Shown in pieces: positions 6,127-26,922 of a stretch of 64,000 nt of DNA. The stretch lies in NCBI RefSeq assembly GCF_055900595.2, contig NZ_CM148325.1; one strand, written 5' to 3'. Position numbers and translations under genes: made by a program. Positions within the stretch are counted from its first letter, which is position 1. The number at the start of each line of letters is the position of its first letter. Below the pieces are notes generated by a model, which saw nothing but the letters and a program-made list of their open reading frames with translations, was not told the origin of the DNA and ran no database searches.

Positions 6127-6145
6127 AATGGTGCGATAATAGGAA
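6127..6145. repeat. att core repeat: partial direct copy of thrW 3' end (matches 26845-26864)
   Basis: AATGGTGCGATAATAGGA vs AATGGTGCCGATAATAGGA at the tRNA 3' end, 18 of 19 identical. Confidence 0.6.
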
Positions 6146-6206
6146 CAATACACATAGGCGATAAGCTTTGTTTTTGTTGCCTTTTTTATTGTTCATTTTT
6201 TATAGA

Positions 6207-6227
6207 TACCCCCAAAAGTACCCCCAT
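6207..6227 (+). repeat. TACCCCCAAAAGTACCCCCAT motif near attR (copy also at 26714-26734 near attL/int promoter)
   Basis: 21-bp motif present once near each end of the element in the same orientation; possible integrase arm-type site. Confidence 0.4.
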
Positions 6228-6345
6228 ATCTTTTTCCGCCCCTGAAATTTGGTTGTTATTCATACAGCATATCAGGCGGTAACGCTCTCCCTTTAACCCA
6301 CTTATTGTATGATAGTGCTATCCCACAATAAGGAATCAGCCAGCC

Positions 6346-6705
6346 ATGAGAATGACCAGCCGTAAAAAAGAGATACTCAGTTATTTTGAGCCGGATAACC
6401 TAGAATGGGTGACAGGTGAGATTGGTGCGCCGCCGTTCGATGTGTCGGGCGTGGCCTACCTGCTTCATGGCATGGTGTCGTTCGATAAGCGCCACCAGCT
6501 CGAATCAACCCGGCGCACACTGGAAAGCATGGTTGCTGGTGGACTGCTTGAGCGGGTGACAGTGTATGAATCGCGTCAGGTACGGCGCGGCGGTGAGACT
6601 AACGCAACGGTCGTGCGCTACGGTTTACCCGGTCACTGCGCTGTTATGCGCGATACTGGCGGCGCTGATAACGCAATATCAGGCGAATACATGCGGGTCA
6701 GTTAA
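6346..6705 (+). CDS. Hypothetical protein
   Basis: 119-aa ORF, AAGGAA RBS 8 nt upstream; inverted repeat TTATTGT(N16)ACAATAA in promoter region. Confidence 0.5.
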   Translation: MRMTSRKKEILSYFEPDNLEWVTGEIGAPPFDVSGVAYLLHGMVSFDKRHQLESTRRTLESMVAGGLLERVTVYESRQVRRGGETNATVVRYGLPGHCAVMRDTGGADNAISGEYMRVS

Positions 6706-7240
6706 GAGCCTGCAATCTGTCGTTAATGTTGTTCAGGTCGTAAACCCGGCGTTCAATATCCAGCATCAGGAAATCGTGGATCTCGGCCTGTTCAGGATTA
6801 TCAGACTCTCTGGCCTGTAAGAGCAATTCATTGTAACCATGCAAACCACCCGAATTTTCCGCCGGGGTAGTGCCCTTCCCGCGCAAACAGCTAACAGGCT
6901 GGATACTGGTATCATGTGTTTGCTTCTCCAGCACAACAAGGCAATCCCACCAGTCGCCAAAGTCATACGTGTAAACCAGCTTGTCACCCTCATTCTGGAG
7001 CGCCGCCCATAGTGGCGTGATTGCCGCGTTACCCATGCTTTCATCCTCACCCCATACGCGATACTCGCTACCTGGATCACCTTTACGCCCTTTCTCGAAC
7101 ATATACAGGTGTTCGTCATTCCAGCCAAAAGCTAACTGGATCACGGCATGAAGTTTACTAAAGGGGATTTGCTCTGGAACCAGCACACGCCGCCATATTG
7201 GTGGTTTGCTGTCTCGGATGGTTATCTTTATCTGGTACAT
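6698..7240 (-). CDS. pRiA4b ORF-3-like family protein
   Basis: N-terminus MYQIKITIRDSKPPIWRRVLVPEQIPFSKLHAVIQLAFGWNDEHLYMF matches the characteristic start of this family. Confidence 0.6.
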   Translation of the reverse strand: MYQIKITIRDSKPPIWRRVLVPEQIPFSKLHAVIQLAFGWNDEHLYMFEKGRKGDPGSEYRVWGEDESMGNAAITPLWAALQNEGDKLVYTYDFGDWWDCLVVLEKQTHDTSIQPVSCLRGKGTTPAENSGGLHGYNELLLQARESDNPEQAEIHDFLMLDIERRVYDLNNINDRLQALN

Positions 7241-7283
7241 GCGTCGTGAACCAATAGTGTACGTTTAGGTGGGTATTTTTCTG

Positions 7284-7718
7284 CTACTGACCAGGATAGA
7301 GCTGATGTGCCGGGTCAAGCCAGACAATATGGAATACATTACCGATGAAAAATCCATGTATGCGACCATATTCATTGCGCGATATGGCAAATTGATAAGG
7401 TGTATAACTCTGAAACTGTTCATTCAAATGCTGAAATCCCTTAGGTTCAGATGTAGTTTGCCAATCAATCGGATGTGACTTCAACGAACCACCGCGATCG
7501 GTGGTGAACTCTCGTTCAGTCATAGTGGAAAGGTCTTTGAGGCGGTCTAACACCTTGCAAAAATAAACAGGATTCTGAGCGCTGAAAGTAAATTTCTCAT
7601 GCGCCGCATCGATATACCGAAAAGAAAAGTTGATGGTCGTTATGCCTGAACCTGTTCCCCCAGGCACTATTTTTGTTTGCGAGGGTGCAATCTTCGACGC
7701 CCTGATTCTTTTCGCCAT
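7284..7718 (-). CDS. Hypothetical 144-aa protein, candidate toxin/effector partner of Panacea-domain protein
   Basis: ORF starts 2 nt after the stop of the upstream Panacea gene; no recognisable motif. Confidence 0.5.
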   Translation of the reverse strand: MAKRIRASKIAPSQTKIVPGGTGSGITTINFSFRYIDAAHEKFTFSAQNPVYFCKVLDRLKDLSTMTEREFTTDRGGSLKSHPIDWQTTSEPKGFQHLNEQFQSYTPYQFAISRNEYGRIHGFFIGNVFHIVWLDPAHQLYPGQ

Positions 7719-7720
7719 AT

Positions 7721-8176
7721 TTAGGAAGCCATCGAACGATAAAACTCAGCCGTTACACTTTTATCAATAACATTCTTGCACGGCGCATCTGATGGAACCC
7801 CTTCACGGGCCTCCAGCCACGGCTTTTCTTGGTGCGTCATCTGCTCCAGCTCATAAGCTGTATAACCGCCAAATACCTCATAGATTTCCTTTAGATGCTT
7901 TGACACATTCGCAGGTAACTCAGGGCAGGCAATCTCTTCGTCTATTGAGCGCCATTTGTAATCTGCAAATCTGGTATACAAATCTCTGGCTACAGGGCCA
8001 TGTACCCATGCTTCAAACTTGTCAGCAACCAGTTCTTCGCCATCATTCAGCGCCATGAACCAAGCATCAGCATAGAACACCATTTTTTGCAGTTTCAGCG
8101 GCGTCATAACATCCCCATGCTCTTGAGCAAAGCAAAGCAGGTAATCCGCTACGCTGTTAAGGGTTGTAACTGCCAT
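7721..8176 (-). CDS. Panacea-domain protein (DUF4065, GepA/SocA-like antitoxin family)
   Basis: MTPLKLQKMVFYADAWFMAL...EAWVHGPV...YELEQMTHQEKPWLEAREG pattern; start moved to internal ATG at 8176 with AGGAG RBS. Confidence 0.75.
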   Translation of the reverse strand: MAVTTLNSVADYLLCFAQEHGDVMTPLKLQKMVFYADAWFMALNDGEELVADKFEAWVHGPVARDLYTRFADYKWRSIDEEIACPELPANVSKHLKEIYEVFGGYTAYELEQMTHQEKPWLEAREGVPSDAPCKNVIDKSVTAEFYRSMAS

Positions 8177-8497
8177 TATCCAATCTCCTGCCGTATGTTT
8201 TCGTCTATAACTGTCCACTACCGTTAATAATCGCATATAACCACGGGTATTGCCCATCGTAAAATGCCATTTAAAGATTCTGCGTGATGGCTCACCATCC
8301 ACCGCGCAAGATACCCGGTGCGTTTGGCTGATAATCCGCAATTTGGTTGAAACCGTCCTGGAAACCTCAAGTTTGGAAACCAGCGACTTGCATCGTAGCT
8401 TTGCCATTCGGCGGTCATAGTTACTGCTATATCCCTTTATTGGCGAGACCTGCGAGAGGTTTTGTTGTTCGAATATATAAAGGTGAATAAAGGTAAT

Positions 8498-8683
8498 CTA
8501 CCTGCGCGGCGCAGGCTTCTTCCACTGGTAGGCGGGTGATCGCATCATTTCGCGAAATTTGTCACGCCGGGCTATATTGGCATTAACTGAGCGTTCTATC
8601 TCCCGTTGATCTGCCGGGGTTAGCTGGTGGCCTTCGTGCTCCAGTTTGGCGGTGGTCAATAAAGCTATTTCGCGTGGTGTCAT
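8498..8683 (-). CDS. Small hypothetical protein
   Basis: 61-aa ORF, charged and helical-looking, no family recognised. Confidence 0.3.
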   Translation of the reverse strand: MTPREIALLTTAKLEHEGHQLTPADQREIERSVNANIARRDKFREMMRSPAYQWKKPAPRR

Positions 8684-8911: not shown

Positions 8912-8938
8912 CTACGCGCGCGCGTACTTGTCCCGAAA
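8912..8938 (+). repeat. CG-palindrome motif copy 1: TACGCGCGCGCGTA + CTTGTCCCGAAAT
   Basis: One of three direct copies (8912, 10305, 10591) of the same roughly 25-bp motif. Confidence 0.6.
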
Positions 8939-8980
8939 TACCAGAAACCGCCAGCCAGAGGATGATTTCCCTCTGGTGGT

Positions 8981-9262
8981 CTACCTTTGCCTCTTGCCGC
9001 CATTTAACCGGAAGGCGTTACCGTTCGGTTGCGCTATCCCCATGCGGTGTTGCGTTTCGGTAACAGCTTTATGCAGGTCGCCAAATTCCTCAACCTTCAC
9101 GGGCGGGCGCTTCACGTTCTCCAGACACGTTTCACGGCGGCGCTTTATCCATTCCCGATCATCGTCCTCGCTGCATAACAGCATGACTTCCATCCATCGT
9201 GCGGCAGCTCTCCGGTATAGCCCTTTTGACACCAGCTCTTCAGCTTTCCTGTCCCTTATCAT
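8981..9262 (-). CDS. PerC-like small transcriptional activator
   Basis: 93-aa ORF; AEELVSKGLYRRAAARWMEVM resembles the PerC family N-terminus as I recall it. Confidence 0.45.
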   Translation of the reverse strand: MIRDRKAEELVSKGLYRRAAARWMEVMLLCSEDDDREWIKRRRETCLENVKRPPVKVEEFGDLHKAVTETQHRMGIAQPNGNAFRLNGGKRQR

Positions 9263-9298: not shown

Positions 9299-9419
9299 GT
9301 TGGTTCAGTTGGTTCAGTTGGTTCAATTTGTAAAGATCGTTGTTTTTATTATGTTTTTTCTAAAATATTGAACCAACATCAACTCATTTTGAACCAACAC
9401 AGCCCAGCTCTGAACCAAC
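9299..9419. repeat. Iteron cluster A: 3 tandem GTTGGTTCA then 3 spaced TGAACCAAC (crr/ori-like)
   Basis: Exact 9-mers at 9299, 9308, 9317 and inverted copies at 9369, 9390, 9411. Confidence 0.8.
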
Positions 9420-9521
9420 AACACAGCGATAGCTTTGTGATTGGCCCGTTATTTTCTGGCTGATATTTGAGCGTATAACAGTGTTATACAGTGATATACT
9501 GTATGGATATTACTCACTGAT

Positions 9522-9977
9522 ATGGTCTTTGCAATGAGCAAATCTAATCTGGTCGCGTTCCGCATCCCATCTGAATTGCAGGATGAGTTTAATCGGTCTG
9601 TTCTCGCTTCTGGAGGGGATAAAACCTCCTGGCTTGTTGATGCGATTCGCATGAAGCTGGGACAGCCGGAAAAGTCTATTGATTCACGAATGTTTGGGCT
9701 GGTGGAGCGCATGGAAAAAGCTGCTGCGTCGCTTATTGCCGGAAAGCCGAACATCCCACCAAAGCCATATAACGAAACGGCAGTTATAAAGATCATTGCC
9801 GATACCATCCGACAGGGATTTGATAATGGGCGTGTGATAGCTGAACGGATCAATGAAGCAGGCTATCAAACAAAAGCTGGTAAAGCGTGGGATAAAGATA
9901 TTTACAGCGCGTGGAAGCGTCAGGGAAGCAATGCTGAAAAGTTAAAAGCGGTGATTGATTGTAAGGTCAGCGTATAA
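9522..9977 (+). CDS. Putative DNA-binding protein (ribbon-helix-helix-like N-terminus)
   Basis: 151-aa ORF; N-terminal VAFRIPSELQDEFNRS...WLVDAIRMKLG resembles RHH regulators. Confidence 0.5.
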   Translation: MVFAMSKSNLVAFRIPSELQDEFNRSVLASGGDKTSWLVDAIRMKLGQPEKSIDSRMFGLVERMEKAAASLIAGKPNIPPKPYNETAVIKIIADTIRQGFDNGRVIAERINEAGYQTKAGKAWDKDIYSAWKRQGSNAEKLKAVIDCKVSV

Positions 9978-10056
9978 ACATGAGTGCCCATTGGAAAGCT
10001 GCTTGGGCCAATACCTTTATACACCAGCAGGTGGTGACGATAGGTGAGGATCAGGA

Positions 10057-10278
10057 ATGAAAGGCAGAACGCCACACATTGAACATCAAGCCAACCACTT
10101 CTCGGATGTTCGCAATGAGATGATTGCCATTCGCGGTGATATGCACGGCTTGGAGCGTCGAATTATTGATAAGATTGATGAAAATAGAGATAAGGCCAGT
10201 GAAAATCAAAAGTGGATCATCGGCCTGTTGATTTTATCAATTCTTATCCCGCTACTTATCGCATTGGTCACAAAATGA
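10057..10278 (+). CDS. Small membrane protein, XhlA-like (C-terminal transmembrane helix)
   Basis: 73-aa ORF with charged N-terminal region and C-terminal WIIGLLILSILIPLLIALV helix. Confidence 0.4.
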   Translation: MKGRTPHIEHQANHFSDVRNEMIAIRGDMHGLERRIIDKIDENRDKASENQKWIIGLLILSILIPLLIALVTK

Positions 10279-10304
10279 ATATCCAATGTGTATGCTGTCG
10301 ATGC

Positions 10305-11671: not shown

Positions 11672-14398
11672 CTATTCCCATTCGCTAACATCTTTCATGC
11701 CACTGAGGGTAGCTACAATCCCGGCCCTTGTCAGTTTCACGAATTCTTCAGCCCCAACGGCATCACGAATTGCTTTCATGGCAATTTTATTGGCCGAAAA
11801 TCGTTTCTCTGCTGCGGCGATCGCTGCTGGTGATGCCCCTGCGCGCACTGCTTTTGTAGCTTCCTGAACGGCTTTCTCTATCGCATATCGACCACTTCTT
11901 GTCGCCCCAATCTTAGCCACAGCATTTCTTAGCGCGCCACCAGCAACCAAACCACTAATCGAACCAATTACACCACCGCCAAAGCCTCCAGCGATCGCAC
12001 CTGACTGTTGAACACCGTTCATAATCACGCCGACGATCTTTGGAAGGCCTGAATCGAGCGTTTTGAGAGCCTCAGTTGTTCTTCCCGTGCGCTCTACGTA
12101 TCGCTGCGGTCTGGTACTGGCTTTAGCGAGTACACCGAACTCTTTCATCATTCTACCGAGATCTGGCGCATGACGACTGATGGCGTTTACATTCTGCTGG
12201 GTCATGAGCTTGGCAAAATACTGGATACCTGACTCTTCACCGATTCCTCCCTTCTCTCCCTGCGCCACAGCATGCTGAAGAATAGATGCTATTGCAGGTT
12301 GGCGTTCTGCTTCCGGCAGCGCGGAGATAAGACGGTGAAAAGCTCCCGTTCCAGTGTTTGCGGATGCCTTAAGCGTATCGGCACCTTTTCTTACCATAGC
12401 GTCTGATGCGAGATCTCGACCAAAAACAGATTCGGCATTTTGTTTGGCGATAATGTAACTTTTAGAGAGATCGTTAGCTTTCTGCCATTCTGTGAGGAAG
12501 TTTCCTTTTTCAGCCATGATGCGCATGTCATCAGTGATAGCTCTGCGCATTTCTCCGGCAATCCGGGCGGCATTGGCCTTACCTGCCCGGGTGTTTGCTT
12601 GTTCAGCATCAGCAAACTTAGCACGCCATGCCTTCATCCCGTCGAAGGTTATGCCGCCACCTTGGTTGTTGGCAGCCTGAAACTGTTTCATCTCCGGGCT
12701 GAGTGGAACATTGGCTGCTTTTTCTGCTTGGACGACAGCCATTCCATTACTCATTTTCATCCTTTCGCGTGGCATCGTGCTTCGCAGTTCTGCCCATGCC
12801 ATATTCTCTGCTGTTTTCATATCACTGAGGCTCGCGATGATGCGCTCTTTAATTGCTGCGCTTTTTTCTGATGCGCTTCCAGACTCAGCACCGAAATCAG
12901 ACAACTGCTTATTCAACTTTGAGGATATTTCATTGAAGGCCGTAAGGTGAGCATCCTGAACATTCCCAGGAGTTGATGCCAGAACACCTTCTGCTTGGGC
13001 AATTCCACGACTACCTGAGCGCATTCCAGGCGTCAGGGTGTTGATATTAATACCAGTGATTTTCGCCGCCTTAGCGACATCATCTCTGACGTTTGATGCC
13101 TGCGATGCGATATGCTCTCGGCCTACGGCAGAACGCGCTGCTTTCGATACATCATTGGCGGTTTCCAGAGTATTTGCTGCCCCTAACACATGGCCTGATT
13201 GATTTGTATTACTCCGCAATACATCTCGCATTACGTCACTGGCTGTCTGTCCGCTCTTTATTAAAGCGCGTGCTCCTAGCGATCCTGCTAGGCCAATACC
13301 TGTCTCTTTTGCTAGGTCTTCTGGGCTGATCTGCCCGTTCTTTTGGGCGTTCACCAATGTACCTGGCAGGTTTTCTGCCAACATACTAGCCACCTTTGTG
13401 GCCGCACGTTCAGCACGTGGAGCGTTGGCAACTGAAGAAGCTGCGGTAGCTGCCTTTCCTGCACCTAATCCTGTAATAAGGTAAGGTGCTAGCTGCTCAC
13501 CAGCCTGCGCGTATGGATCTGTAGGTTGGTCTACTGGGCGAAAGACAGGTGATATGGGCGTGTATGTGCCATCACCCACACCAAGCTTCTGAGCTGCCCA
13601 TGCTCCGGCTGATTGCGCCGCATTGACTACCCCCACGCCTGCGTCCATTACATCAAACGGTATATTAGCAATCCCTCTGGCCATCTGCTCTGGCGCAGCT
13701 TTCAGTCCTGGCGAAAGATATTCCATCTCAGGATTAAGGTTAGACTTGGCTACTTGCTGCTGCGGTTCCCCGGCATTTTCATCGGCGAGAAACTGAGCTC
13801 TTTTCTGCTCCCATGAACTGGCTGTTGGTAGTCCTGCTTCTATGTTCTTAAATTGCTGACGTTTTGCTTCCCATGCAGAAATATCTCCCACCTGAGAGAT
13901 TTCTTTATCAAGCTCTGAGTAGTCAGGCTGCTGAAGATTGCGATGTTGACTGGTTTGTGCAAACTGCAAGATTTCACTGTCATCAGGGATTATTCCGGCA
14001 TCTGCAAATTTACTTACGTAATTAGCCGTTTCATCTGGCAGTGTAGATTTACCGTTTCTGACGGCATTAATACGAGCATAGCCAGAATTATACCCAGCCA
14101 ATGCCATACCTATATCACCAAATCGCTTCATTCCTTTATTGAGATGGTTTGCTGCGATATCCATTTGCTTTTCAAATGGCAGTGAGCGCGGATCTGTTCC
14201 ACGATAACCAGCATCACTCATTACTGAGGGCATCAGTTGAGCAAATCCTCTAGCTCCTTTCGGTGACTCGGCACTTCCGTTACCACTAGATTCATTGCCA
14301 ACTAATGTTTCCATCGTCCCTGATGGGAAACCATATTTTTCATCGAGATGACGGGAATAGGCTTTCTGTTTTTCTGTCAGTTGTGCCATCATTGCCAT
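11672..14398 (-). CDS. Phage internal virion/ejection protein with N-terminal lytic transglycosylase (SLT) domain
   Basis: 908 aa; SLT motifs ES(catalytic)...GARGFAQLMP...AGYNSGYAR near the N-terminus. Confidence 0.8.
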   Translation of the reverse strand: MAMMAQLTEKQKAYSRHLDEKYGFPSGTMETLVGNESSGNGSAESPKGARGFAQLMPSVMSDAGYRGTDPRSLPFEKQMDIAANHLNKGMKRFGDIGMALAGYNSGYARINAVRNGKSTLPDETANYVSKFADAGIIPDDSEILQFAQTSQHRNLQQPDYSELDKEISQVGDISAWEAKRQQFKNIEAGLPTASSWEQKRAQFLADENAGEPQQQVAKSNLNPEMEYLSPGLKAAPEQMARGIANIPFDVMDAGVGVVNAAQSAGAWAAQKLGVGDGTYTPISPVFRPVDQPTDPYAQAGEQLAPYLITGLGAGKAATAASSVANAPRAERAATKVASMLAENLPGTLVNAQKNGQISPEDLAKETGIGLAGSLGARALIKSGQTASDVMRDVLRSNTNQSGHVLGAANTLETANDVSKAARSAVGREHIASQASNVRDDVAKAAKITGININTLTPGMRSGSRGIAQAEGVLASTPGNVQDAHLTAFNEISSKLNKQLSDFGAESGSASEKSAAIKERIIASLSDMKTAENMAWAELRSTMPRERMKMSNGMAVVQAEKAANVPLSPEMKQFQAANNQGGGITFDGMKAWRAKFADAEQANTRAGKANAARIAGEMRRAITDDMRIMAEKGNFLTEWQKANDLSKSYIIAKQNAESVFGRDLASDAMVRKGADTLKASANTGTGAFHRLISALPEAERQPAIASILQHAVAQGEKGGIGEESGIQYFAKLMTQQNVNAISRHAPDLGRMMKEFGVLAKASTRPQRYVERTGRTTEALKTLDSGLPKIVGVIMNGVQQSGAIAGGFGGGVIGSISGLVAGGALRNAVAKIGATRSGRYAIEKAVQEATKAVRAGASPAAIAAAEKRFSANKIAMKAIRDAVGAEEFVKLTRAGIVATLSGMKDVSEWE

Positions 14399-15708: not shown

Positions 15709-16385
15709 TAGAATCCAAGCCCCCCAACAAGACCAATAAGCCCACCACCAATAGCGCCGGCCGCAGTTCCTATTCCAGGAACAACGGAACCAAGTTGCGC
15801 ACCCGCTAAAGCGCCTGATGCTGCCCCACCAATACCACGCGCAAGACTGGATGGCTGCTGCGCCTGACCTGCACGAATAGCGCCAAGCCCCTGCAAGAGT
15901 TGTCCGGTATTATTGGCGTAGTTTTGCCCTGCCGTTGCCTGCCCTGATGCCGCATTCATCCCGACATTTAGCAGGTTTCCATAATTTTGCATTTGCCCAC
16001 TGAGCCAATTGTTATAAAGCATGGGCGCAATGGAAGATAACTGGTTACTGGTAGCTGTTGAGCCAAGCCCCCCGGTAGCTTCTGCTGAGACAAGGTTCTG
16101 ATAACGGGCCTGATCTGCCTGTGTTTTATATAAACCAGAACCAAAGAAATCATTCGCGGCTTTATTCTGCCCTTCCAGAGTCATCAGTCCTTGTAGTTGT
16201 TGTAAAGCAGGCAATCCGACTTCTGCATACGGCTTGAGATTATTCATCACCGTATTCCACTGCTCGCGCTGCAAATCAATTGCCTGCTGCTGGGCCTTCG
16301 CCTGAGCTTTAGAGGCACCACCATCACCGCCTTTTTCGTATACGGCACGATTGAGATGTTTATGAGCTATGTGGGTAATTAACAT
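15708..16385 (-). CDS. Phage internal virion/ejection protein with Gly-rich hydrophobic C-terminus
   Basis: 225-aa ORF, overlaps neighbours by 1 and 7 nt. Confidence 0.6.
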   Translation of the reverse strand: MLITHIAHKHLNRAVYEKGGDGGASKAQAKAQQQAIDLQREQWNTVMNNLKPYAEVGLPALQQLQGLMTLEGQNKAANDFFGSGLYKTQADQARYQNLVSAEATGGLGSTATSNQLSSIAPMLYNNWLSGQMQNYGNLLNVGMNAASGQATAGQNYANNTGQLLQGLGAIRAGQAQQPSSLARGIGGAASGALAGAQLGSVVPGIGTAAGAIGGGLIGLVGGLGF

Positions 16386-17602: not shown

Positions 17603-20362
17603 TCATTCTTCAGATGAGTTATAATCTCCTGGCTGGTAATTGAGTACATAAACGTTTATTTGTCGTCCCTGAATACGTGGTGATTTTCTTTGGTATCCAC
17701 GACCGCTGTTTGGTGGGGTTAGCATCCCGGCTTTTTTCAACACTTCAGCAAACTGTTTTGCGTTGAAACCACATGCGATCTCCTTTTCAAATGTGGCCGG
17801 GAATGTGTAGAAAATCATTGGGCTTTCGTCATGTTCTCCACGCTGACGGTATCCGGCTAAATCTTTGATGGGCAAATCTGCCGGGCTGTATGGAAATGGT
17901 GCAAAACGGCTAAGCCCATAGGCATTAAGAAATGCCTCCGTTTGTTCAATAATCTGCTGATGTTCTTTGTTACCTGTGCCGAACTCGCGCAACCATGCGT
18001 TATAGCTGTGCTGTATCGCATCACGGCATGTCTGAGCATCCCAGCCTGTTACAACCTCGCCTAACAGCAATGCGGCCTCCAGAATGGCAAATCGCGCGGC
18101 TACACGGTGAACCTGCTCACCATAATCGGATGGGATCAGGCTTCTCCATCTGCTTTCGCAATCACGAACGGTTTTAATAGCCTGTTGCTGGTGGTCTGCC
18201 AGCCATTTAATCCACTCACGCCCGGACGCGCCGTGGTGATGCTGGTAAGCGTCTTTCAGTGCGTCTGCGTGCTGTTTTCCGTTCTGGTAATCGTGAAAGC
18301 GTACTGCTTTACTCAACGGAATATTCAGCAGTCGCACCAGTTGCCCGGCTTTGGTTTTTCGCCCGGAAGTAGCGATAAATGTTTCTAAATCCATTTCTCC
18401 GGTGCTGATTGCCACTGTACGCCAACGTTTTAGATCCCGGTTTCCACCATCTTTAGCGCCTTGCAGTTTCCCTACACCGTTAAATAACGCATAGGCAGAC
18501 TGTGAAACGCTGACAGGATCAGCGCCCTGACCAACTTCATCAAGCGGCATTAGTCCGTCATTGTGGGCGGCGGCCTCATTTGCCAGCCCCAGCGCGGTTC
18601 CGTACCACGTCAGCCGCAGTAAATCAGGGTTGCCGTATAAGCTGCTCGCCACGTTTGCCGTGGTGGTCTTACCTGCGCTCGACTGCTCATAGAAATGAAT
18701 GCCGAACCCGTCAGCGCCCACCAGCCCAATCAATGGCGCTGCCAGTGCTGCGCCGATCCCGGTCATCATTGAATAGTTACCAAAGGCCAGACGCGCCACG
18801 TTATCACGCCAGCTTTTCGCGCTCCCTGAGACGGTATATCCGGCTGCGGCTGAGCTTCTCCCGCTGAACAGCACAGGATTTTCAGGTGTTCCGATGATTT
18901 CCCCATCAGGCATGATGTACGCTCCGCATTGCCAGCCAGTGGCATGAGCAACACGCCACAATTCACGAGAGCCACTGCGTTGTAGCCAGTCTGCCAGTAT
19001 TGCTCTGAGGCTGCTTTTGGTCGTGACATTTACCCCACCAGCTTTAAGTGTGCGCCATCCTTCACGTTCACCAATATCAGCCAGTGGAATGGCAGCGGTT
19101 GTCGGCGTTTCAGAACCAAACGACAGCCAGCGAAGAATGAGATACTGGTCTTTATCGTCTCTGCCAGTACCGATAACGCTTAACGGAGAACATAACCAGC
19201 TTTCGTTATTGATGATTTCTCCACTCTGGCTGTCAGCTCTCGGAGATACCCAATAAATACCATCCTCGCGGCTTTCTATTCTTGGTTTCAGTGGGTCGGT
19301 ATCCATAACCTTAAAATCGCTTCCCTCAATGGTCTGTGGCTCCTGTTTCACGCCATTACCCTGTGGTTGGTACATTGACTTATTGAACGCTTCTGTGGCG
19401 CATTTAATGCCGTGTTTTTGGTGGTAATCATTCCAGTCTGCTTTGTGATCTGTCGGGGGTAATGCCACCCATCCAGAAACAGATAAAGCTGCTTTTTCTG
19501 CTGCTATTCTCCCCGTGTTTTGTCTTCCTTCGCTGTGGTCGTTATCCGCAGCAATGATGATTTGTGCTGAAGGATATTTATCCCGCAGTACCTGGGCGAC
19601 ATATAACAGGTTCCCGGCATCAATCGCCGCCACTGTCAGCGCCTCTGGACGAATTAAATGGGCAGATAATGCCGTTGCCAGCCCTTCTGCGATTAAGATG
19701 CTCTGTGTTGTTTCTGGTGCGTTTATGGCGTGATATGCCCCCCGCTTTGCTGAACCTGTCAGGAGTCTTTTTTCACCATGTGAGGTAATAGTCTGTGCTG
19801 CTGTGACTGCGCCGGATTTATCCACCAGCGCCAGCAACAGAGATCCATCGGGCAACACGGGGAATGTAAAATCACCTACCCCTTTCGCAACCAGATAATC
19901 AGATTTGCCGTTTACAGCCTTTCTGCGCATGTCATCAAACTGACGGGAAAACGTATCCCGTCTTTGTTGTTCGTCCTTCTCTGCCCTTTTCAGGCGCTCC
20001 TGTTCGCGTCGCTGGCGCTCGGTTTCCAGTTGTTCCCGTTTCTGGCTGGTGGCTTCTGGTGTTTCCGTTGTCCGGTAATCAATACCCAGAACATCAGCGG
20101 CAAGAAGCGCCGCCTCTGTTGTGTCGCAGTTATTTACGCGTTTAATTAAATCCAGCCCATCACCAGCGCCGCACTGATTACAGATGAAGCTACCGCGCCC
20201 GTTGTCATCGAACCGGAATCGATCTTTGCCCCCACATGCAGGGCAGGGAGCATGACGGCGCGGAGAGTCAGGGACATTTATGTTCAGGCAGCCCAGCACA
20301 TGAGGCCAGTTGTTTTCAGACGCACTGATAACCTGACGGATAAGATCAATGTTTCGCATCAC
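17603..20362 (-). CDS. P4 alpha-like DNA primase-helicase
   Basis: 919 aa; zinc-finger CPACGG...CNQCG, TOPRIM-like acidic core IIIAADNDH, Walker A SSAGKTT. Confidence 0.85.
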   Translation of the reverse strand: MMRNIDLIRQVISASENNWPHVLGCLNINVPDSPRRHAPCPACGGKDRFRFDDNGRGSFICNQCGAGDGLDLIKRVNNCDTTEAALLAADVLGIDYRTTETPEATSQKREQLETERQRREQERLKRAEKDEQQRRDTFSRQFDDMRRKAVNGKSDYLVAKGVGDFTFPVLPDGSLLLALVDKSGAVTAAQTITSHGEKRLLTGSAKRGAYHAINAPETTQSILIAEGLATALSAHLIRPEALTVAAIDAGNLLYVAQVLRDKYPSAQIIIAADNDHSEGRQNTGRIAAEKAALSVSGWVALPPTDHKADWNDYHQKHGIKCATEAFNKSMYQPQGNGVKQEPQTIEGSDFKVMDTDPLKPRIESREDGIYWVSPRADSQSGEIINNESWLCSPLSVIGTGRDDKDQYLILRWLSFGSETPTTAAIPLADIGEREGWRTLKAGGVNVTTKSSLRAILADWLQRSGSRELWRVAHATGWQCGAYIMPDGEIIGTPENPVLFSGRSSAAAGYTVSGSAKSWRDNVARLAFGNYSMMTGIGAALAAPLIGLVGADGFGIHFYEQSSAGKTTTANVASSLYGNPDLLRLTWYGTALGLANEAAAHNDGLMPLDEVGQGADPVSVSQSAYALFNGVGKLQGAKDGGNRDLKRWRTVAISTGEMDLETFIATSGRKTKAGQLVRLLNIPLSKAVRFHDYQNGKQHADALKDAYQHHHGASGREWIKWLADHQQQAIKTVRDCESRWRSLIPSDYGEQVHRVAARFAILEAALLLGEVVTGWDAQTCRDAIQHSYNAWLREFGTGNKEHQQIIEQTEAFLNAYGLSRFAPFPYSPADLPIKDLAGYRQRGEHDESPMIFYTFPATFEKEIACGFNAKQFAEVLKKAGMLTPPNSGRGYQRKSPRIQGRQINVYVLNYQPGDYNSSEE

Positions 20363-20717
20363 CGTACCCCACGTGGTCTATAGCGTTTGCGATATGGCTA
20401 ACCAGCATCTGCCACTTGGTTATTCCGTAATCAGTCAGCATGCCATCATTGTTTAGCCACATATCAAATTCAGCGGTTGTCGCAAGTTTCCACTTATCGC
20501 CGTGGGCAGTCCTCATTGCTGGGTACATGAATGCGCAAATCAGATCACAAACATCTGACGGCTTCAGAGATGTAGTAATGATGCGTCCCTCTGGCGTCTG
20601 AATTGCCATTTTCTCTTCACCAGTAGAATGAAGGTTATGAATCCACACAGCACCAGCAATCTTTGCCACCTGCTCTCCGATTGCGGAGCTAAGCGCCATT
20701 TCTGCATTTTCACGCAT
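20346..20717 (-). CDS. Hypothetical protein
   Basis: 123-aa ORF in operon with primase. Confidence 0.45.
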   Translation of the reverse strand: MRENAEMALSSAIGEQVAKIAGAVWIHNLHSTGEEKMAIQTPEGRIITTSLKPSDVCDLICAFMYPAMRTAHGDKWKLATTAEFDMWLNNDGMLTDYGITKWQMLVSHIANAIDHVGYGDAKH

Positions 20718-21051
20718 GAGAACCTCCCGCTACAGTTGCGCCCATGTCATTAACCATGCTTTGCCATATCTCACGCCCGACGTCAGTCAATCCGTCCTTA
20801 GTGACGCAACGATCAAGAAGCTCGATCCCCACGGTTTCCCACTGCGGGTAGAACACTTTCATGGCTGCCAGTGTGTAGCTATCGATCAGGCTGCGAACGC
20901 CTTTTACTCCATTGACGATTTCCACACGGACGGCCTCGCCGTCCGCATCAACCATGAAATAGTCCCCGCCGCTGGTGGAGGTAATGTGGTTATACAGTGC
21001 CGACGCATACTTATTTGCCAGCGCATTCAGTCGGAAATTTTTAGTAATCAT
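20710..21051 (-). CDS. Hypothetical protein
   Basis: 113-aa ORF, 8-nt overlap with downstream gene. Confidence 0.45.
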   Translation of the reverse strand: MITKNFRLNALANKYASALYNHITSTSGGDYFMVDADGEAVRVEIVNGVKGVRSLIDSYTLAAMKVFYPQWETVGIELLDRCVTKDGLTDVGREIWQSMVNDMGATVAGGSHA

Positions 21052-21061
21052 GGTTCCATCC

Positions 21062-21664
21062 TCAGTGCGTCACTGGTTCCGCTGGCATGCCGTTTTCATT
21101 CAGTTCAGCTATAAAGCTGTTGTGAAGTTCAGCAAGCGTTTCACGACCAAATGGAGTCAGTGCTCCTTGTTCCACATCCATCATGGCTCTGTAGAAAATG
21201 ATGGCGCGTTCTGTGCCAGACTCGATGCCAAAACGTTCTATCATCGCGCCCTCAATGTTGTTTGCCATAGCGAGGCGCTCTGCTACTGGATACAGCGGCA
21301 TGGCGACGATGCCGTTGGAATAAACAGCCACTTCGGAAGGGTTGCCAGTATCATCAATGATGCTGACAGTGCCGTTTTCCTCTCTCATTTCCAGCATGAA
21401 TACTGTTGCGATCAGCCATCTCCACATAATGACGTTATGCTGTGATGTGTAATCGAAATATCCCTGGTTGCCGCCATCGGCTATAGCGAGATGTATTGAC
21501 ATACCTTCATCTGGTTTATCGTCATAATCCCCGGCATCCAGACGATTTACGGCATCAATATATGAGACGGCCTCAACGCGTTCTGTCATGCCATCGTTGC
21601 TGCGGTACATGATGTTTACGCCGTCAGGCGTTGCTTCTGCATGGAAAGTTAAGAAATTATTCAT
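21062..21664 (-). CDS. Hypothetical protein
   Basis: Start moved to internal ATG (MNNFLTF...) giving ATG/TGA overlap with upstream ORF. Confidence 0.5.
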   Translation of the reverse strand: MNNFLTFHAEATPDGVNIMYRSNDGMTERVEAVSYIDAVNRLDAGDYDDKPDEGMSIHLAIADGGNQGYFDYTSQHNVIMWRWLIATVFMLEMREENGTVSIIDDTGNPSEVAVYSNGIVAMPLYPVAERLAMANNIEGAMIERFGIESGTERAIIFYRAMMDVEQGALTPFGRETLAELHNSFIAELNENGMPAEPVTH

Positions 21665-21878
21665 GTTTCGCCTCGCCTGAATGATTCTGTAACTCATATT
21701 TGCCCAACAATTCGTCTGCTTCCTGAATAGCTTCTGGTACGCCATTGAGCAGTGACATAACCGCGCCAATCATTAACTTGTCTCTGTTGCTGGGGCTGGC
21801 CCCTTCAAGCCAGAACCCTAAAACAGTCTGAACCTGTTCGATGCGACATTGTGCTTCAATGAGCTGGATGTTGGTCAT
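21657..21878 (-). CDS. Hypothetical protein
   Basis: 73-aa ORF, overlapping start/stop chain. Confidence 0.4.
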   Translation of the reverse strand: MTNIQLIEAQCRIEQVQTVLGFWLEGASPSNRDKLMIGAVMSLLNGVPEAIQEADELLGKYELQNHSGEAKHE

Positions 21879-22138
21879 TTCGCACTCTCCGCATCGATTA
21901 AACTGATATCTATCAGAGAGGTAACTTTTTGTAGCCAGCTAGTGATTACTGTCGCCTGTTCCCCTCCCACCGATGGAAGAATCTCATTCATCACATGAAG
22001 CAGACCTGTGCGCGCCCTGGTAAGCCGTTCAGTCGTGCGATCTGCAAGAGTGAATGTGTCTGGATATGGCTCTTCACGGCTCAGCAATGATTCAATTTCC
22101 AGCTCACACGGATGACGATAAATTAAGTTGATATTCAT
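21875..22138 (-). CDS. Hypothetical protein
   Basis: 87-aa ORF, overlapping start/stop chain. Confidence 0.4.
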   Translation of the reverse strand: MNINLIYRHPCELEIESLLSREEPYPDTFTLADRTTERLTRARTGLLHVMNEILPSVGGEQATVITSWLQKVTSLIDISLIDAESAK

Positions 22139-22386
22139 TTTTCACCACCAAGAATTACCAGCTCTGCACGAGCATCGTTAACCAAAGATGAGCACGCTTT
22201 AATCGCATCCACGACATCAGCAGCGTCCATTTCTTCAGCCGAAAGACTGACAGCAACCAGGACAGCCGCTGCTTGCTCGATTAATTGAAGTGCGGACGTA
22301 AGTCGAGGGGCATTAATTGAGTTATTCATTGGTTGCCCCCGTTTTTCCTGGCATTTCGCCACCTTCCAGCAGGAAATGAACGTCAC
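22135..22386 (-). CDS. Hypothetical protein
   Basis: 83-aa ORF; true start may be internal. Confidence 0.35.
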   Translation of the reverse strand: MTFISCWKVAKCQEKRGQPMNNSINAPRLTSALQLIEQAAAVLVAVSLSAEEMDAADVVDAIKACSSLVNDARAELVILGGEK

Positions 22387-22540: not shown

Positions 22541-22874
22541 GTGCCACCTCCATGCGGATACGACCAGCAAAAAAGCAGACGTGATCGCGCACCAGAGAAC
22601 GGCGAGCATCGCGTTCAGACTCGGCAGCAATATGATGAATTTTGGCGGTAATTGTCGGGCAATCGCGGCGAACTGCGGCGATAATCCAGATAAATTGCGG
22701 TTTTTGGGTAGGGGTAGTAGCCAGCATGTGGCAGCCTCCTTGTACTGGGAATTCTTCCCACCACCGGAGCTGCGAAACTCGCTGGTGGTGGACTGAACAG
22801 AGTTCGCAGTACCGGCGTACAAGGAAACCGGCCAGCCTTTCGGCTGCCCTGTCCAGCCCACCATAATTTTGCAA
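22533..22874 (-). CDS. Hypothetical protein
   Basis: 113-aa ORF with ATG/TGA overlap at 22533-22540. Confidence 0.35.
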   Translation of the reverse strand: MQNYGGLDRAAERLAGFLVRRYCELCSVHHQRVSQLRWWEEFPVQGGCHMLATTPTQKPQFIWIIAAVRRDCPTITAKIHHIAAESERDARRSLVRDHVCFFAGRIRMEVAHD

Positions 22875-23385
22875 GCGACGCGGATTATAACCACATCACT
22901 GAAAAAAGTGTGAGTCTGGCTAACGGCACAAAAAAAGACGCTCGGCGCGTCATGTGTCGCCTCGTACATTTCCGGGCTGCGAAACCCGGCACCCGTTTTA
23001 TGAGGTGCCTTATAACCATAAACCGTGTTGCCGCATAACGGCAAGCTCTTTTTTATGGACTCCGAAAACTCACTATTGGAAGAACCAGAAGCACAGTACA
23101 TCGCGCTCATTTCGTTAACGTCACGCGCGTGGACGAATGTTTTTGTGGAGTCACTACACGAGCGGAAGACATCATCTACGACCAGAAATTTTCTGGCGCA
23201 GCCGCTGACCTTCTCAAGGCTAATATCATCGCCCGAGATTTCTGGTATGGTTAAGGCATCCGTTCCGGCCACCAGCAAATGATAAACTTTGCTTGTATCT
23301 GCTGTATTAATGCCTGACTTTGCCGTCATATTTCTGGATTTTGGCGACATACCAGCCAGTGAAAATGTCTTCTTCTGGATGGGTA

Positions 23386-23565
23386 TCATTGGTTAACCTC
23401 CGCGAACTCCTTCATGAAACGCGCCAGCGGTTGTACGCATGGCGATTGATACCCGTCGCGATAAAACGTCACTCGGTTGTGAGACACGCTTTCGACAGTA
23501 ACGAGTGCTCCGTGGGCATCTTTGTAGCGTTTTTGAGGTTGTGGTGTTCCTGTCGGCTTAAACAT
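23386..23565 (-). CDS. Small hypothetical protein
   Basis: 59-aa ORF from internal ATG overlapping antirepressor stop. Confidence 0.35.
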   Translation of the reverse strand: MFKPTGTPQPQKRYKDAHGALVTVESVSHNRVTFYRDGYQSPCVQPLARFMKEFAEVNQ

Positions 23566-24391
23566 GGACCGCCTCCAGACGCTTGGCGAGCCAGCGTTGC
23601 GACAGGCGGGTGAGTTCTCCTTTACGCTGCTCATATTCCATGCCCATATCAATTAACGTGATATTGGTGCTTTCGAGATATGAGAGGTGCTCAAGCTGTT
23701 CTGCGTTCATATGGTCGCGAGGTTCGCCAGAATAGCCATTTATCCGCGCCCACTGTTTAGCAGTTAGCCCACCAAGAACGATACGAGAAATCATATTGCT
23801 CTCGTTTGTGTAGTGGTGTTGCTGCGTCGTTTTACCCATCTCGGCACGGGCCATATTCAGCGCATCGCACATTGGCTTAAAGTTGTTTGCGGCACTGATA
23901 CGGGCTTTTAGCTGGCGACGATAGCGGGCGGCGATTTCAGGCACGCTACGCTGTAATTCTTCCTCGCACTGGATGAAATAACGGCGGATAGCGCGCCCCT
24001 GATCATTGCGTTCGATCATTGCCAGTTCTTTCGCCATTCCGACACTTAACAGATAGTCTTTGCCGGGTCTGCCAGACTGCTTAATCTTGCTGTAAGCCGC
24101 GTCATTCGGGCTTTTCCCCAAATTTGGGGAAATTGTTTTATGGACTGAGTAATCGTGCCCAATGGTGAAGTCATATTCAGAGATGCGATCAGTGATCCAT
24201 GTAGAGAAGTCTTTTCCCACGCCCAACGCTTTGTGTAACGCTTTTGCGCTAACAATATTGGTTTCACGCCCACCGATATGACCAGGAATAACCGGGACAA
24301 TTGCGGCAAATTCATTACCGTTAATTGTGCCCAGAGAGGCGTTCAGATGAGGGGCAGCCTCAGAAATTAATCTGCTTTTTTCGATGTTCAT
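23558..24391 (-). CDS. Phage antirepressor-like protein
   Basis: 277 aa; KALHKALGVGKDFSTWITDRI...LLSVGMAKELAMIERNDQGRAIRRYFIQCEE resembles AntA/KilAC-type antirepressors. Confidence 0.5.
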   Translation of the reverse strand: MNIEKSRLISEAAPHLNASLGTINGNEFAAIVPVIPGHIGGRETNIVSAKALHKALGVGKDFSTWITDRISEYDFTIGHDYSVHKTISPNLGKSPNDAAYSKIKQSGRPGKDYLLSVGMAKELAMIERNDQGRAIRRYFIQCEEELQRSVPEIAARYRRQLKARISAANNFKPMCDALNMARAEMGKTTQQHHYTNESNMISRIVLGGLTAKQWARINGYSGEPRDHMNAEQLEHLSYLESTNITLIDMGMEYEQRKGELTRLSQRWLAKRLEAVHV

Positions 24392-24403
24392 TTTCAGTCT
24401 CCG

Positions 24404-24835
24404 TTAGGCGGCGTTAAACGCGTCCGGGTAGAGTTTCAGAATGTCGGCAATTTCCTGCTGAGAAAGTCCGTTGTGATCATTTATGTTCGCAAGATGGTTA
24501 ACATGAGTGATCACTTTCAGAACATCACCACGGCAGGAGAAACGGTAGCGAAGGTGTGTTCCGATACCATCAGGATTCTTTTCGTCGATACGCTCCAGAG
24601 TGATTCCAAGCTGGCGTTCTAACTCTGTTGCATAGTTACGACCAGAAGACAGACGGCAGTAGCGAAGAATGTCATTTTCTGTCCATCCCTCTATACCAGT
24701 ACGCAGCATATAGACTCTGGCACGATGCTTTTTCGGTGTGCGCTTTGGTGCTTGAAGGGATTTTGTAAGGGGCGTAACATCAGATACACGAATATCTGAA
24801 TTAGCCGCCTGTAATGGGCGGTTTTTCTTTTCCAT
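24404..24835 (-). CDS. Hypothetical protein
   Basis: 143-aa ORF between antirepressor and alpA. Confidence 0.45.
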   Translation of the reverse strand: MEKKNRPLQAANSDIRVSDVTPLTKSLQAPKRTPKKHRARVYMLRTGIEGWTENDILRYCRLSSGRNYATELERQLGITLERIDEKNPDGIGTHLRYRFSCRGDVLKVITHVNHLANINDHNGLSQQEIADILKLYPDAFNAA

Positions 24836-25038
24836 CAGGCCACCTCGTCTCTAGATTCTAATATACACTTCTCAATCCATTCATCTATTTCAGACTCAAC
24901 AAAAGCAATTGCCCGACTTCCAATTTTTACCTGTTTAGGGAACCTCCCCTGACTAATAAGACGATAAATCCATGCTTTGCTATAACCAGTTCGCCTTTGA
25001 ACTTCAGAGAGACGAATTAATGAATTGTAATTAGCCAT
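24835..25038 (-). CDS. alpA: AlpA-family transcriptional regulator / excisionase-like
   Basis: 67 aa; LIRLSEVQRRTGYSKAWIYRLISQGRFPKQVKIGSRAIAFVESEIDEWI is the AlpA HTH pattern. Confidence 0.8.
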   Translation of the reverse strand: MANYNSLIRLSEVQRRTGYSKAWIYRLISQGRFPKQVKIGSRAIAFVESEIDEWIEKCILESRDEVA

Positions 25039-25466
25039 TTATTAATATCCTGTACTAATGACGCAATAACCCCCTCCTGCAACGAATGGCGAGAGTTTTA
25101 TTTGCGTCAAATGTCGAATACGCCAAAGACCACAATATGAAAAACATATTGCGGTCTTTTATAAAAGATAGTCAGATTGTTTTGGTTTGTTTGCTCCACA
25201 AGGGTAGAGCTACCCTGCATTTCGGCAGGATCACGCTATTAGGCGTGACATCCAGTAGTTTTAAAGAACAATTGCGCTTTGTCAGCGCCAAAGCCTGTTA
25301 AAGAACATTCCGCTTTGTCAGCGACGTAGAAGGCTCAATACACCTTCGTTTATAAAAGAGCGATTGCCCTTCTCCAGGGCTAACTGTTAAATAGCAATCC
25401 TCTGTGAGTTTTTATCAATCTACTCCCCTATACTTTAGTAAACCTCTGTATACTTGTCCAGTTGTT

Positions 25467-26681
25467 TCATGCGTGTTTTTCAAACACCATATGCACCACA
25501 TTTCCGCCATGCTCGAGAGAATCCATATAGTCGGCATACCATTGAAGCATCTCCCGCCTTCCATCCAGATATTGCGCATGGTTGTATGTGCCACGAATTG
25601 AGTTCTTATCAACGTGAGCGAGCTGCGTTTCTATCCACGCGGTGTTATAGCCCTGCTCATGCAAAATCGTACTCATAGTGTGCCGGAACCCATGACCAGT
25701 TACACGTCCAGCGTAGCCAATGCGCTTAAACACTTGGTTTATGCTGGCCTCGCTCATTGTTTTCCTTGGATCATTGCGCCCGGGAAACATAAGAGGGTAA
25801 TTGCCTGTTATTTCTCTAATCTTCCCAATAAGCGAAAGAGCCTGCTCAGACAATGGCACAATATGAGGCCGCCGCATTTTCATACGTGAAGCGGGTATCT
25901 CCCAGATAGCCTTGTTGAAATCAATTTCATCCCATAATGCGCCACGTAGTTCGCCAGTCCGCAAGCCGGTGATAATCAGTAGACGAGCCGCCATAACAAC
26001 CAATGCGCTTCCTGAGTAACTGGACAATGCCTTGAAAAAATCAGGTAATTCTTTGGCTGTAAGGAAAGGGTAATGATTAGATTCATGGCCTTGCATCGCG
26101 CTAGTAAGGTCTGGTGCAGGGTTATACTCTGCGCGACCAGTGACTATTGCATAGCGGAAAACTTCCCCGCACCGTTGCCTCACTTTTTTGGCTTTTTCTG
26201 TAGCACCGCGCCCCTCGATGCGACGCAGCACATTCAGAAGTTCAAGTGGTTTGATTTCGGCGATGGGTTTTTTGCCAATGTAAGGGAACACATCTTTGTT
26301 GAAGGCTTCGAGGATGTCTGAAGCATAACCAGCAGACCATTTTTTTAATTTGCTGCTGTGCCACTCAAGGGCAATATCTTTGAAGGTGTTGTTTAACTGC
26401 GTTTCCCGGGCAATCTTTTCCTCTCGTTTCGCTTCCATCGGATCGATACCACCAGCGATACCTCTTTTCGCATCTTCACGTTTTGCCCGAGCATCGGCTA
26501 GAGTAACCTCAGGATAAACACCTAGTGCCAATAGCTTCTCTTTACCAGCTACACGATATTTAAGTCGCCAGTATTTACCTCCATTAGGTTTTACCAAGAG
26601 ATACAAACCGCCACCATCGGCCAGCTTGTAAGCCTTCTCTTTTGGCTTGGCTGTGTCTATTTGACGGGCATTGAGTTTCAC
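25467..26681 (-). CDS. P4-type tyrosine integrase
   Basis: 404 aa; MKLNARQIDTAKPKEK... N-terminus, C-terminal HGFRHT...H..Y catalytic region; adjacent to tRNA. Confidence 0.9.
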   Translation of the reverse strand: MKLNARQIDTAKPKEKAYKLADGGGLYLLVKPNGGKYWRLKYRVAGKEKLLALGVYPEVTLADARAKREDAKRGIAGGIDPMEAKREEKIARETQLNNTFKDIALEWHSSKLKKWSAGYASDILEAFNKDVFPYIGKKPIAEIKPLELLNVLRRIEGRGATEKAKKVRQRCGEVFRYAIVTGRAEYNPAPDLTSAMQGHESNHYPFLTAKELPDFFKALSSYSGSALVVMAARLLIITGLRTGELRGALWDEIDFNKAIWEIPASRMKMRRPHIVPLSEQALSLIGKIREITGNYPLMFPGRNDPRKTMSEASINQVFKRIGYAGRVTGHGFRHTMSTILHEQGYNTAWIETQLAHVDKNSIRGTYNHAQYLDGRREMLQWYADYMDSLEHGGNVVHMVFEKHA

Positions 26682-26713
26682 TTGGGGGTACCTCCACTAA
26701 ACCGAACAGCAAA

Positions 26714-26734
26714 TACCCCCATAAGTACCCCCAT
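26714..26734 (+). repeat. TACCCCCATAAGTACCCCCAT motif in int promoter/attL region
   Basis: Second copy of motif at 6207-6227. Confidence 0.4.
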
Positions 26735-26846
26735 CTGACCGTAGATTTTGAGGGACTTTAGTAGACGTCAAAAGACGAACGGGGCTTTAATACGCGGATT
26801 ATAAGGGGTTTTGAAAGACTTTAGTAGACTTGGGGAGATGTTTGAA

Positions 26847-26922
26847 TGGTGCCGATAATAGGAGTCGAACCTACGACCTTCGCATTACGAATGCGCTGCT
26901 CTACCAACTGAGCTATATCGGC
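26847..26922 (-). tRNA. thrW: tRNA-Thr (anticodon CGU)
   Basis: Reverse complement GCCGATATAGCTCAGTTGGTAGAGCAGCGCATTCGTAATGCG...TATCGGCACCA; anticodon loop TTCGTAA. Confidence 0.9.

Follow-up and report, generated by a model that had tools for sequence, protein, structure and literature searches.

The stretch of DNA analysed here (the window: 64,000 nt, one strand, of contig NZ_CM148325.1, NCBI RefSeq assembly GCF_055900595.2) is the proBA-thrW region of Escherichia coli, and its positions 6145-26844 are very probably a phage-inducible chromosomal island (PICI), that is, a phage satellite, of the EcCIMP1 type, inserted at the 3′ end of thrW by its own P4-type integrase. A preliminary description of the region, made from the sequence, had proposed tandem integrative elements at this tRNA gene. 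The tandem element is real, but the satellite EcCIMP1, which has been described, was not recognised in it. The biology of the element is already known with regard to the thrW hotspot, EcCIMP1 itself and the P4-type attP, and the finding at thrW is correct but ordinary.

EcCIMP1, 19,963 bp long, is a phage-inducible chromosomal island described in the mouse commensal E. coli MP1, where it occupies a tRNA-Thr gene between proA and yagU (Pick, Stadel and Raivio, ISME J 2025, PMC11773190). It adjoins a 7-kb MarR/vat island and has flanking repeats of sequence TCCTATTATC; it excises and circularises only upon induction of the P22-like helper Kapi1, its excision requires int and alpA, and Kapi1 transduces it at low frequency, while the vat island showed no excision (PMC11773190). 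The window can be tied to this element through strain NGF1, a mouse commensal in which the distance from repeat to repeat is 19,963 bp, equal to the published length of EcCIMP1, and in which the element has the proA/yagU site and the MarR/vat neighbour island, as in EcCIMP1. Over 16.6 kb the window element is 98.9% identical to the NGF1 copy. The element is at least 80% present beside thrW in about 45 complete E. coli genomes. PCR for an excised circle, which the preliminary description proposed, has already been done in the literature on a near-identical copy, EcCIMP1.

The gene content agrees with this assignment. As in PICIs generally, int, alpA and a primase/replicase gene follow one another in one direction within an att-bounded segment of a size near the usual range of about 10-20 kb. 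The principal features are these:

25467-26681, minus strand: intact P4-type tyrosine integrase, 404 aa (Pfam Arm-DNA-bind_3, Phage_int_M and Phage_integrase; phrog_1)
24835-25038, minus strand: AlpA/excisionase-like regulator in the canonical satellite position
23558-24391, minus strand: AntA/AntB-type antirepressor (phrog_5817; PGAP annotation of the homologous copy)
22781-23008, minus strand: isrK (22931-23008) and C4 antisense RNA (22781-22868), a P4/P1-type RNA immunity region (Rfam at gathering score)
17603-20362, minus strand: TOPRIM-DUF927 primase/helicase, for replication (phrog_1139, E 6e-179)
11672-16840, minus strand: P22-type ejection-protein module, comprising gp14-like (16379-16840), gp7-like (15708-16385), gp20-like (14389-15708) and gp16-like (11672-14398) genes (phrog_651, 598, 917 and 770; tblastn against phages)

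Neither the PGAP annotation of a 99.8%-identical copy nor the PHROG scans revealed capsid, portal, terminase, tail or lysis genes in the element. The P4 genes psu, sid, delta/ogr and epsilon were likewise absent from the annotation and from the PHROG matches of the scanned open reading frames (ORFs), a set that left out the small ORFs at 20346-22386.

The last entry in the list is not foreseen in the definition of the PICI family. In the EcCIMP1 study the genes of the packaging module were treated as hypothetical proteins and the mechanism of packaging was left open (PMC11773190); they can now be read as a complete, selected set of P22-type gp14, gp7, gp20 and gp16 homologues. Nothing specific on satellite-encoded ejection proteins emerged from the literature search. 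The gp16-like protein, 46-52% identical to its best phage matches, has an extra lytic transglycosylase domain fused to its N-terminus. All of the ejection genes are intact in both copies compared, with pN/pS values of 0.08-0.43 against 0.15 for the primase, and because they are intact under constraint like that of the primase we regard them as maintained satellite genes and not debris. As judged from this pattern, they would be functional parts of the satellite. Among relatives in IMG/VR, the loci L015-L019 have gp14 and gp7 homologues that are 97-100% identical to those of the window, a gp20 homologue that is about 49% identical over the first 187 residues, and no match to gp16. The module is thus a mosaic.

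These genes are also a reason for considering that the 20.7-kb block might instead be a decaying P22-like prophage that has retained only its ejection-protein genes. Four P22-type virion genes are present in the phage order gp14-7-20-16, accompanied by a piece of a terminase gene, and the EcCIMP1 region was itself initially classed as an incomplete prophage (PMC11773190). We nevertheless consider this origin highly improbable and reject it. Of the functions that mark P22-like phages (Lederbergvirus), namely terminase, portal, scaffold, coat, tailspike and lysis, the element does not have the set, its P22-like content being limited to the four homologues and a 107-bp fragment of the small terminase gene (terS). 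Identity between the ejection proteins and their counterparts in Kapi1 or P22 is only 26-58%, with the exception of gp14 (84% to that of Kapi1). The start of the P4-type integrase gene faces the tRNA, whereas phages that use thrW have the 3′ end of their integrase gene facing attP. The int-alpA-primase architecture with its C4 RNA immunity region, the persistence of 20 kb in 45 genomes with genes intact under purifying selection, and the helper-dependent excision and transfer demonstrated for EcCIMP1 are equally at odds with a decayed prophage.

Some points do weigh against equating the block with an EcCIMP1-type satellite. There is no sign in the window that this copy is mobile, and a helper prophage is absent from the 64 kb. 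The window copy differs from EcCIMP1 in cargo and is without alpA_1. Finally, the NGF1 element is presumed to be EcCIMP1 (GenBank OR778291) on the basis of length, site, layout and neighbours.

The ends of the satellite are defined by the target gene and two copies of its 3′ end:

26847-26922, minus strand: thrW, tRNA-Thr(CGT), the integration target (ARAGORN, single tRNA found; Rfam tRNA, 71.8 bits)
26845-26863: integrase-proximal att core AATGGTGCCGATAATAGGA, which rebuilds the 3′ end of the tRNA
6127-6144: distal att core AATGGTG-CGATAATAGGA, a displaced copy without one C (left flank up to here identical in empty-site strains)

Read directly, the sequence is AATGGTGCCGATAATAGGAG at 26845-26864 and AATGGTGC-GATAATAGGAA at 6127-6145. 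The two copies share 18 identical bases, one C is absent from the distal copy, and the final base is mismatched, so that the match of 18 in 19 given in the preliminary description holds only if a single-base gap is allowed. An ungapped search for the end of thrW with up to three mismatches returned the tRNA copy only; such a search is blind to the distal core because a one-base gap is required. The decamer GATAATAGGA occurs exactly twice in the window, against 0.12 expected by chance, each time preceded by AATGGTG, and the distance from repeat to repeat is 20,719 bp.

thrW is a recognised integration hotspot, and comparison with related thrW loci, which had been put forward as the means of distinguishing an element boundary from backbone, favours the boundary. 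In the element-free strains AST85 and FDAARGOS_1281, the order is reverse transcriptase (RT), small ORFs, integrase stump, thrW, proA, and the left flank, identical to that of the window, is joined straight to thrW: the integrase stump is followed by AATGGTGCCGATAATAGGA and then by the body of thrW. Many further genomes likewise have the block 1888-6144 continuing directly into thrW. In junction alignments the distal junction of the window consists of the empty-site left flank and the core followed by element DNA, and the proximal junction consists of element DNA followed by the core and the body of thrW. Because element-free genomes share the left flank joined to thrW, positions 6127-6145 are a displaced tRNA end and not backbone. 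The repeat is short and needs a gap to align, as a chance match or a piece of ordinary backbone might, but the same junction is used by empty-site genomes and four other elements and the decamer alone is expected 0.12 times per window; the probability of such an origin is negligible, and it was rejected on the junction alignment with the empty-site genomes. In E. coli Z1323CEC0003 (locus L095, 8240-9700) the same att core is followed by an element with a plus-strand tyrosine recombinase and a phage baseplate gene. With this type counted, at least five element types use the thrW crossover point.

The integrase next to the tRNA is intact and of P4 type, as had been proposed: the 404-aa ORF has all three integrase domains and, along the entire protein, 42% identity to P4 Int, although its score against NCBIfam PRK09692 is 301 bits, below the cut-off of 434. 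Its start faces the tRNA, and integration is at the tRNA 3′ end, as expected of the P4 type. Around both att copies lie short repeats:

26714-26734, plus strand: arm-type tandem pair (26714, 26726) with a 12-bp period, the integrase-proximal arm, 111 bp from the core
26683-26690, minus strand: arm-type repeat TACCCCCA, inverted and abutting the integrase start codon (same position as P4 arm repeat 3915-3926)
6207-6227, plus strand: arm-type tandem pair (6207, 6219) with a 12-bp period, the distal arm, 62 bp from the core
26755-26829, plus strand: ACTTTAGTAGAC twice, at 26755-26766 and at 26818-26829, in the interval from the arm pair to the core, kept in relatives

The motif TACCCCCAWAAGTACCCCCAT is found exactly at 6207-6227 and 26714-26734, both on the plus strand, with none expected in shuffled sequence, and the octamer TACCCCCA has seven copies in the window, of which five are no more than 165 bp away from an att copy. 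An identical arrangement of five sites, annotated in P4 for decades, is entered in the P4 record NC_001609 as "attP arm sequence repeats"; the P4 repeat, TGCCCCCA, is one base off TACCCCCA, and the P4 core starts AATGGTGCC.

Diverged relatives provide a further line of evidence. In a different thrW satellite, that of ARS-C101, whose integrase gene is 92% identical in DNA, TACCCCCAAAAGTACCCCCA is kept 63 bp from the core and the spacer has diverged, and in an element with 83% identical integrase DNA all three proximal-arm sites are kept. In a 47-kb island of THO-008 and a P4-like satellite of MS1170 (integrase identities of 71% and 68%, respectively), every proximal-arm position has TGCCCCCA, and the same sequence, predicted before the sites were looked at, is found in the distal arm. 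The change is thus a concerted A-to-G in all arm copies of both arms, which is the pattern expected of a recognition site that co-evolves with its protein. The suggestion in the preliminary description that a motif near each att copy may be an integrase arm site is therefore supported by the P4 layout and by the concerted change, and the repeats are best regarded as putative arm sites. The Arm-DNA-binding domain of the integrase would bind the T(A/G)CCCCCA arm repeats, and the catalytic domains would bind the core. The ACTTTAGTAGAC repeats are candidate sites for an excisionase or a host factor. They are kept as ACTTNARTAGAC in relatives, and a copy with one mismatch is found at 25432-25443, directly past the integrase stop codon.

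The position of the crossover can be narrowed by the C that is absent from the distal core. The attB site of empty-site strains has CC, whereas in four element/host combinations (the window, APEC E19025, ARS-C101 and THO-008) a single C is present at the distal junction and CC at the proximal one. Because site-specific recombination conserves sequence, attP should carry one C; the attP of the excised circle would have a single C (AATGGTGCGATAATAGGA), and exchange would then occur to the left of that C. We infer that strand exchange would fall within AATGGTG, which consists of the last five bases of the tRNA and two downstream bases. Weighing against this placement, NGF1 is short of four bases at the spot of the missing C and MS1170 is short of none; the C could have been lost later by mutation, with recombination spreading the loss, and its absence would then not be a feature of attP; and the authors of the EcCIMP1 study propose GATAATAGGA as the core (PMC11773190). 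What is added here is an account of the EcCIMP1 attachment site at the level of sequence, lacking in the published study, in which five arm repeats change together with the integrase and the crossover is probably in AATGGTG.

The terminase-gene piece mentioned above raises the question of how the satellite is packaged:

23135-23241, plus strand: 107-bp fragment of a P22-type small terminase gene (gene nt 268-374), candidate pac mimic

The fragment is about 91% identical to the terS genes of Bas106 and IME10. The annotated pac site of P22 comprises nt 268-289 of the small terminase gene, and the fragment starts within a few bases of that position. All EcCIMP1-like copies examined agree in where it begins and ends and in a 22-mer, specific to satellites, at the pac position; downstream of the 22-mer there are two alleles, one Bas106-like and one P22-like. 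Of 5,426 complete E. coli genomes, 686 contain the fragment, mostly within satellites and mostly under annotations of "ash family protein", although it is clearly not coding in the "ash" frame.

We suggest tentatively, and at somewhat less than an even chance, that satellites of the EcCIMP1 family may be packaged by way of this stolen piece of helper terS at the pac position, its two alleles tracking two phage terS alleles, and that the resulting virions may be loaded with the satellite's own ejection proteins. The fragment is P22/IME10-type and the TerS of Kapi1 is Sf6-type and unrelated to it, so that P22-like phages whose terminases are P22-type would be the helpers that work efficiently in nature. 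If this is true, such helpers would explain the very low transduction by Kapi1, and the pac mimic would reveal which phages truly help a satellite family that about one in ten complete E. coli genomes carries. Mimicry of a Kapi1-type pac by homology was considered and rejected, the DNA that Kapi1 shares with the element being the gp14/gp7 region only.

It is somewhat more probable than not, in our estimate, that the fragment is not a packaging site but a neutral recombination scar, or a template for antisense RNA directed against the helper terS mRNA. Within the fragment, resemblance to phage is lowest in the 22 bases at the pac position, of which 15-16 match P22. In the published 17-position pseudo-pac pattern, the window matches at 15 positions and NGF1 at 16, against 17 for P22 and Bas106, so that one or two positions fail; scores of this kind are common by chance, being reached by 45 other sites in the window, and the pattern does not single the fragment out. 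The P22 pac sequence gave no match in the window at up to three mismatches, and the relation to pac is visible only through terS homology. Two satellite copies that agree at about 99% elsewhere differ by 14% in the fragment, which diverges faster than the remainder of the element. In the leader immediately before isrK and C4 it has an antisense orientation, and satellite transcripts would consequently carry antisense terS; moreover, the proven helper, Kapi1, has an unrelated TerS. Several facts weigh, on the other hand, against a scar or an antisense template: the start of the fragment within a few bases of nt 268, the retention of its boundaries and 22-mer in all copies examined, its occurrence in the satellites of several hundred genomes, and the packaging of an EcCIMP1-type element that is without a terminase of its own.

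The fragment is absent from primase relatives at up to 80% identity and is therefore not family-wide. In four loci of more distant relatives (L030, L044, L046 and L054), the slot homologous to 23000-23400 holds several GCGCGTACTG-N5-GAAAACTC-like repeats, which could be iterons or another recognition site. As a concrete candidate for the unassigned packaging signal, the fragment is, together with the ejection module, the only part of the element worth an experiment.

The remaining genes of the satellite are mainly cargo near the distal end:

8981-9262, minus strand: PerC-family regulator (cargo)
7284-8407, minus strand: Panacea/SocA-like antitoxin and a 144-aa partner, strain-variable cargo missing from NGF1/EcCIMP1

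Two cargo segments, 7243-8495 and 9400-10297, are not in the NGF1/EcCIMP1 copy; in NGF1, alpA_1 occupies the place of the second. The antitoxin and its 144-aa MAG6450-family partner, in the first segment, are likely a toxin-antitoxin pair. At the other end of the element, the isrK/C4 pair underlies an ORF annotated as an "ash family" protein. The Ash-domain match of this 355-aa ORF (residues 106-233, nt 22690-23071) falls exactly where the two RNA genes are, which makes the ORF doubtful as a protein; it is probably not a real one.

To the left of the distal repeat lies the debris of one or more older insertions:

5849-6103, plus strand: stump of a lambdoid integrase of the SfX/mEp213 type, C-terminal part, with the 3′ end toward the att copy (84-codon ORF ending in a tyrosine-recombinase C-terminal motif)
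5763-5903, plus strand: N-terminal stump of a Ner-like helix-turn-helix gene (weak phrog_769 match)
5053-5242, plus strand: second isrK-C4 RNA pair, in the remnant, under an "ash family protein" ORF (Rfam at gathering score)
1888-4949, plus strand: UG5-nitrilase reverse transcriptase (DRT class), first 148 nt missing (padloc PDLC03780)
1114-1891: IS1 copy, with the RT gene that it truncates on one side and the ykgM/ykgO/ykgL backbone (window 1-1119) on the other

The integrase stump is 93% identical to the C-termini of the SfX, HK75, mEpX2, mEp043 and mEp213 integrases. In ARS-C101 an intact prophage has its integrase at the position of the stump, in tandem with the satellite, and the stump, or at least its last 66 bp, is found to the left of thrW islands in the strains examined. 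It is well supported that the end of an older lambdoid prophage was at thrW before the satellite inserted, hence the tandem arrangement. The earlier proposal of an older, eroded tandem element is thus borne out as far as the stumps of a different integrase and of a Ner-like gene are concerned; the membership of the RT-nitrilase gene in that element is doubtful, since a far boundary was not found.

According to that proposal, the RT-nitrilase gene, the Ash/isrK-C4 piece, orf156, the Ner-like stump and the integrase stump would all derive from one older element. The block 1888-6144 does travel together at 99-100% identity in many genomes and is always adjacent either to thrW or to the att copy that follows. 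No further displaced copy of thrW at a far end was, however, found in any examined locus: the search covered the window and eight related loci and gave only 10-11-mers at chance level. A second integrase stump, to the left of AbiE in Z1323CEC0003, was considered as well and rejected, being unrelated and without att-like sequence. In addition, the stump is lambdoid whereas the isrK-C4 pair matches that of the satellite itself, and some genomes match the block only to 6006 and then have a different stump allele. Because there is no far att, the isrK-C4 pair is satellite-like and the stump alleles vary independently, we consider an origin of the RT in the stump's element, and a single older source for all the pieces, doubtful, and the block may be composite.

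The RT gene itself is present, as described, but its 5′ truncation by IS1 had been overlooked. The padloc model RT_UG5-nitrilase scores 1034 bits against the full-length gene (1069 aa, AST85) and 956 bits against the window ORF; Pfam found no domain in the full-length RT. The window copy matches in its domains, but with the 5′ 148 nt gone it is not a full-length DRT UG5-nitrilase gene, and as judged from its sequence it is probably inactive. In other strains the ecp operon, ykgJ, yagU, paoABCD and an AbiE pair lie between the ykgM/ykgO/ykgL backbone and the RT gene, which points to an IS1-associated deletion in the window strain.

Among known systems, EcCIMP1 is the closest to the window element. 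Both are located in tRNA-Thr beside proA, both have the gene order int, alpA, antirepressor, "Ash", primase, DUF2824/DNA-transfer genes and PerC, and the published core TCCTATTATC is contained in the window repeat. They differ in length (20,719 against 19,963 bp) and, near the distal end only, in gene content, the window copy having the Panacea toxin-antitoxin pair and lacking alpA_1; the window has the RT remnant as neighbour where EcCIMP1 has the vat island, and its terminase-fragment allele is Bas106-like and not P22-like. The vat pathogenicity island, PAI-536-thrW and the GI-thrW of ST131 are likewise at thrW, but with virulence cargo; in NGF1 and MS1170 the vat island is in tandem with a satellite and retains a related integrase stump and arm. 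The phages of thrW (P22, SfI/SfIV/SfX, mEp213 and HK75) carry about 54 nt of thrW in attP, and the P22 annotation has the 3′ end of the integrase gene facing attP, as in the stump, of which about 60 integrase codons are left in the window.

With regard to packaging, satellites of the SaPI type encode their own small terminase, and so do four primase relatives in IMG/VR (L053, L054, L061 and L068). These relatives share with the window element the primase family (60-70% identity) and a variable module downstream of the primase, but in them the module contains a near full-length Sf6/Kapi1-type TerS and a transglycosylase, whereas the window element has no TerS and has ejection-protein genes instead. 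Different packaging strategies thus occur within one primase family.

The comparison with P4 is closest at the attachment site. P4-like satellites have psu, sid, delta/ogr and epsilon, all of which are present in the MS1170 thrW satellite and absent from the annotation and scanned ORFs of the window element, and the helper is P2 for P4 but a P22-like podovirus for the EcCIMP1-type element. The targets also differ, being leuX for P4 and thrW here. The P4 integrase and attP were reportedly described by Pierson and Kahn in 1987. In P4, as in the window, the core starts at the 3′ end of the tRNA gene and the 12-bp arm repeats number five: an inverted one at the start of the integrase gene, two in tandem about 112 bp from the core, and two more in tandem 54-62 bp away on the other side.

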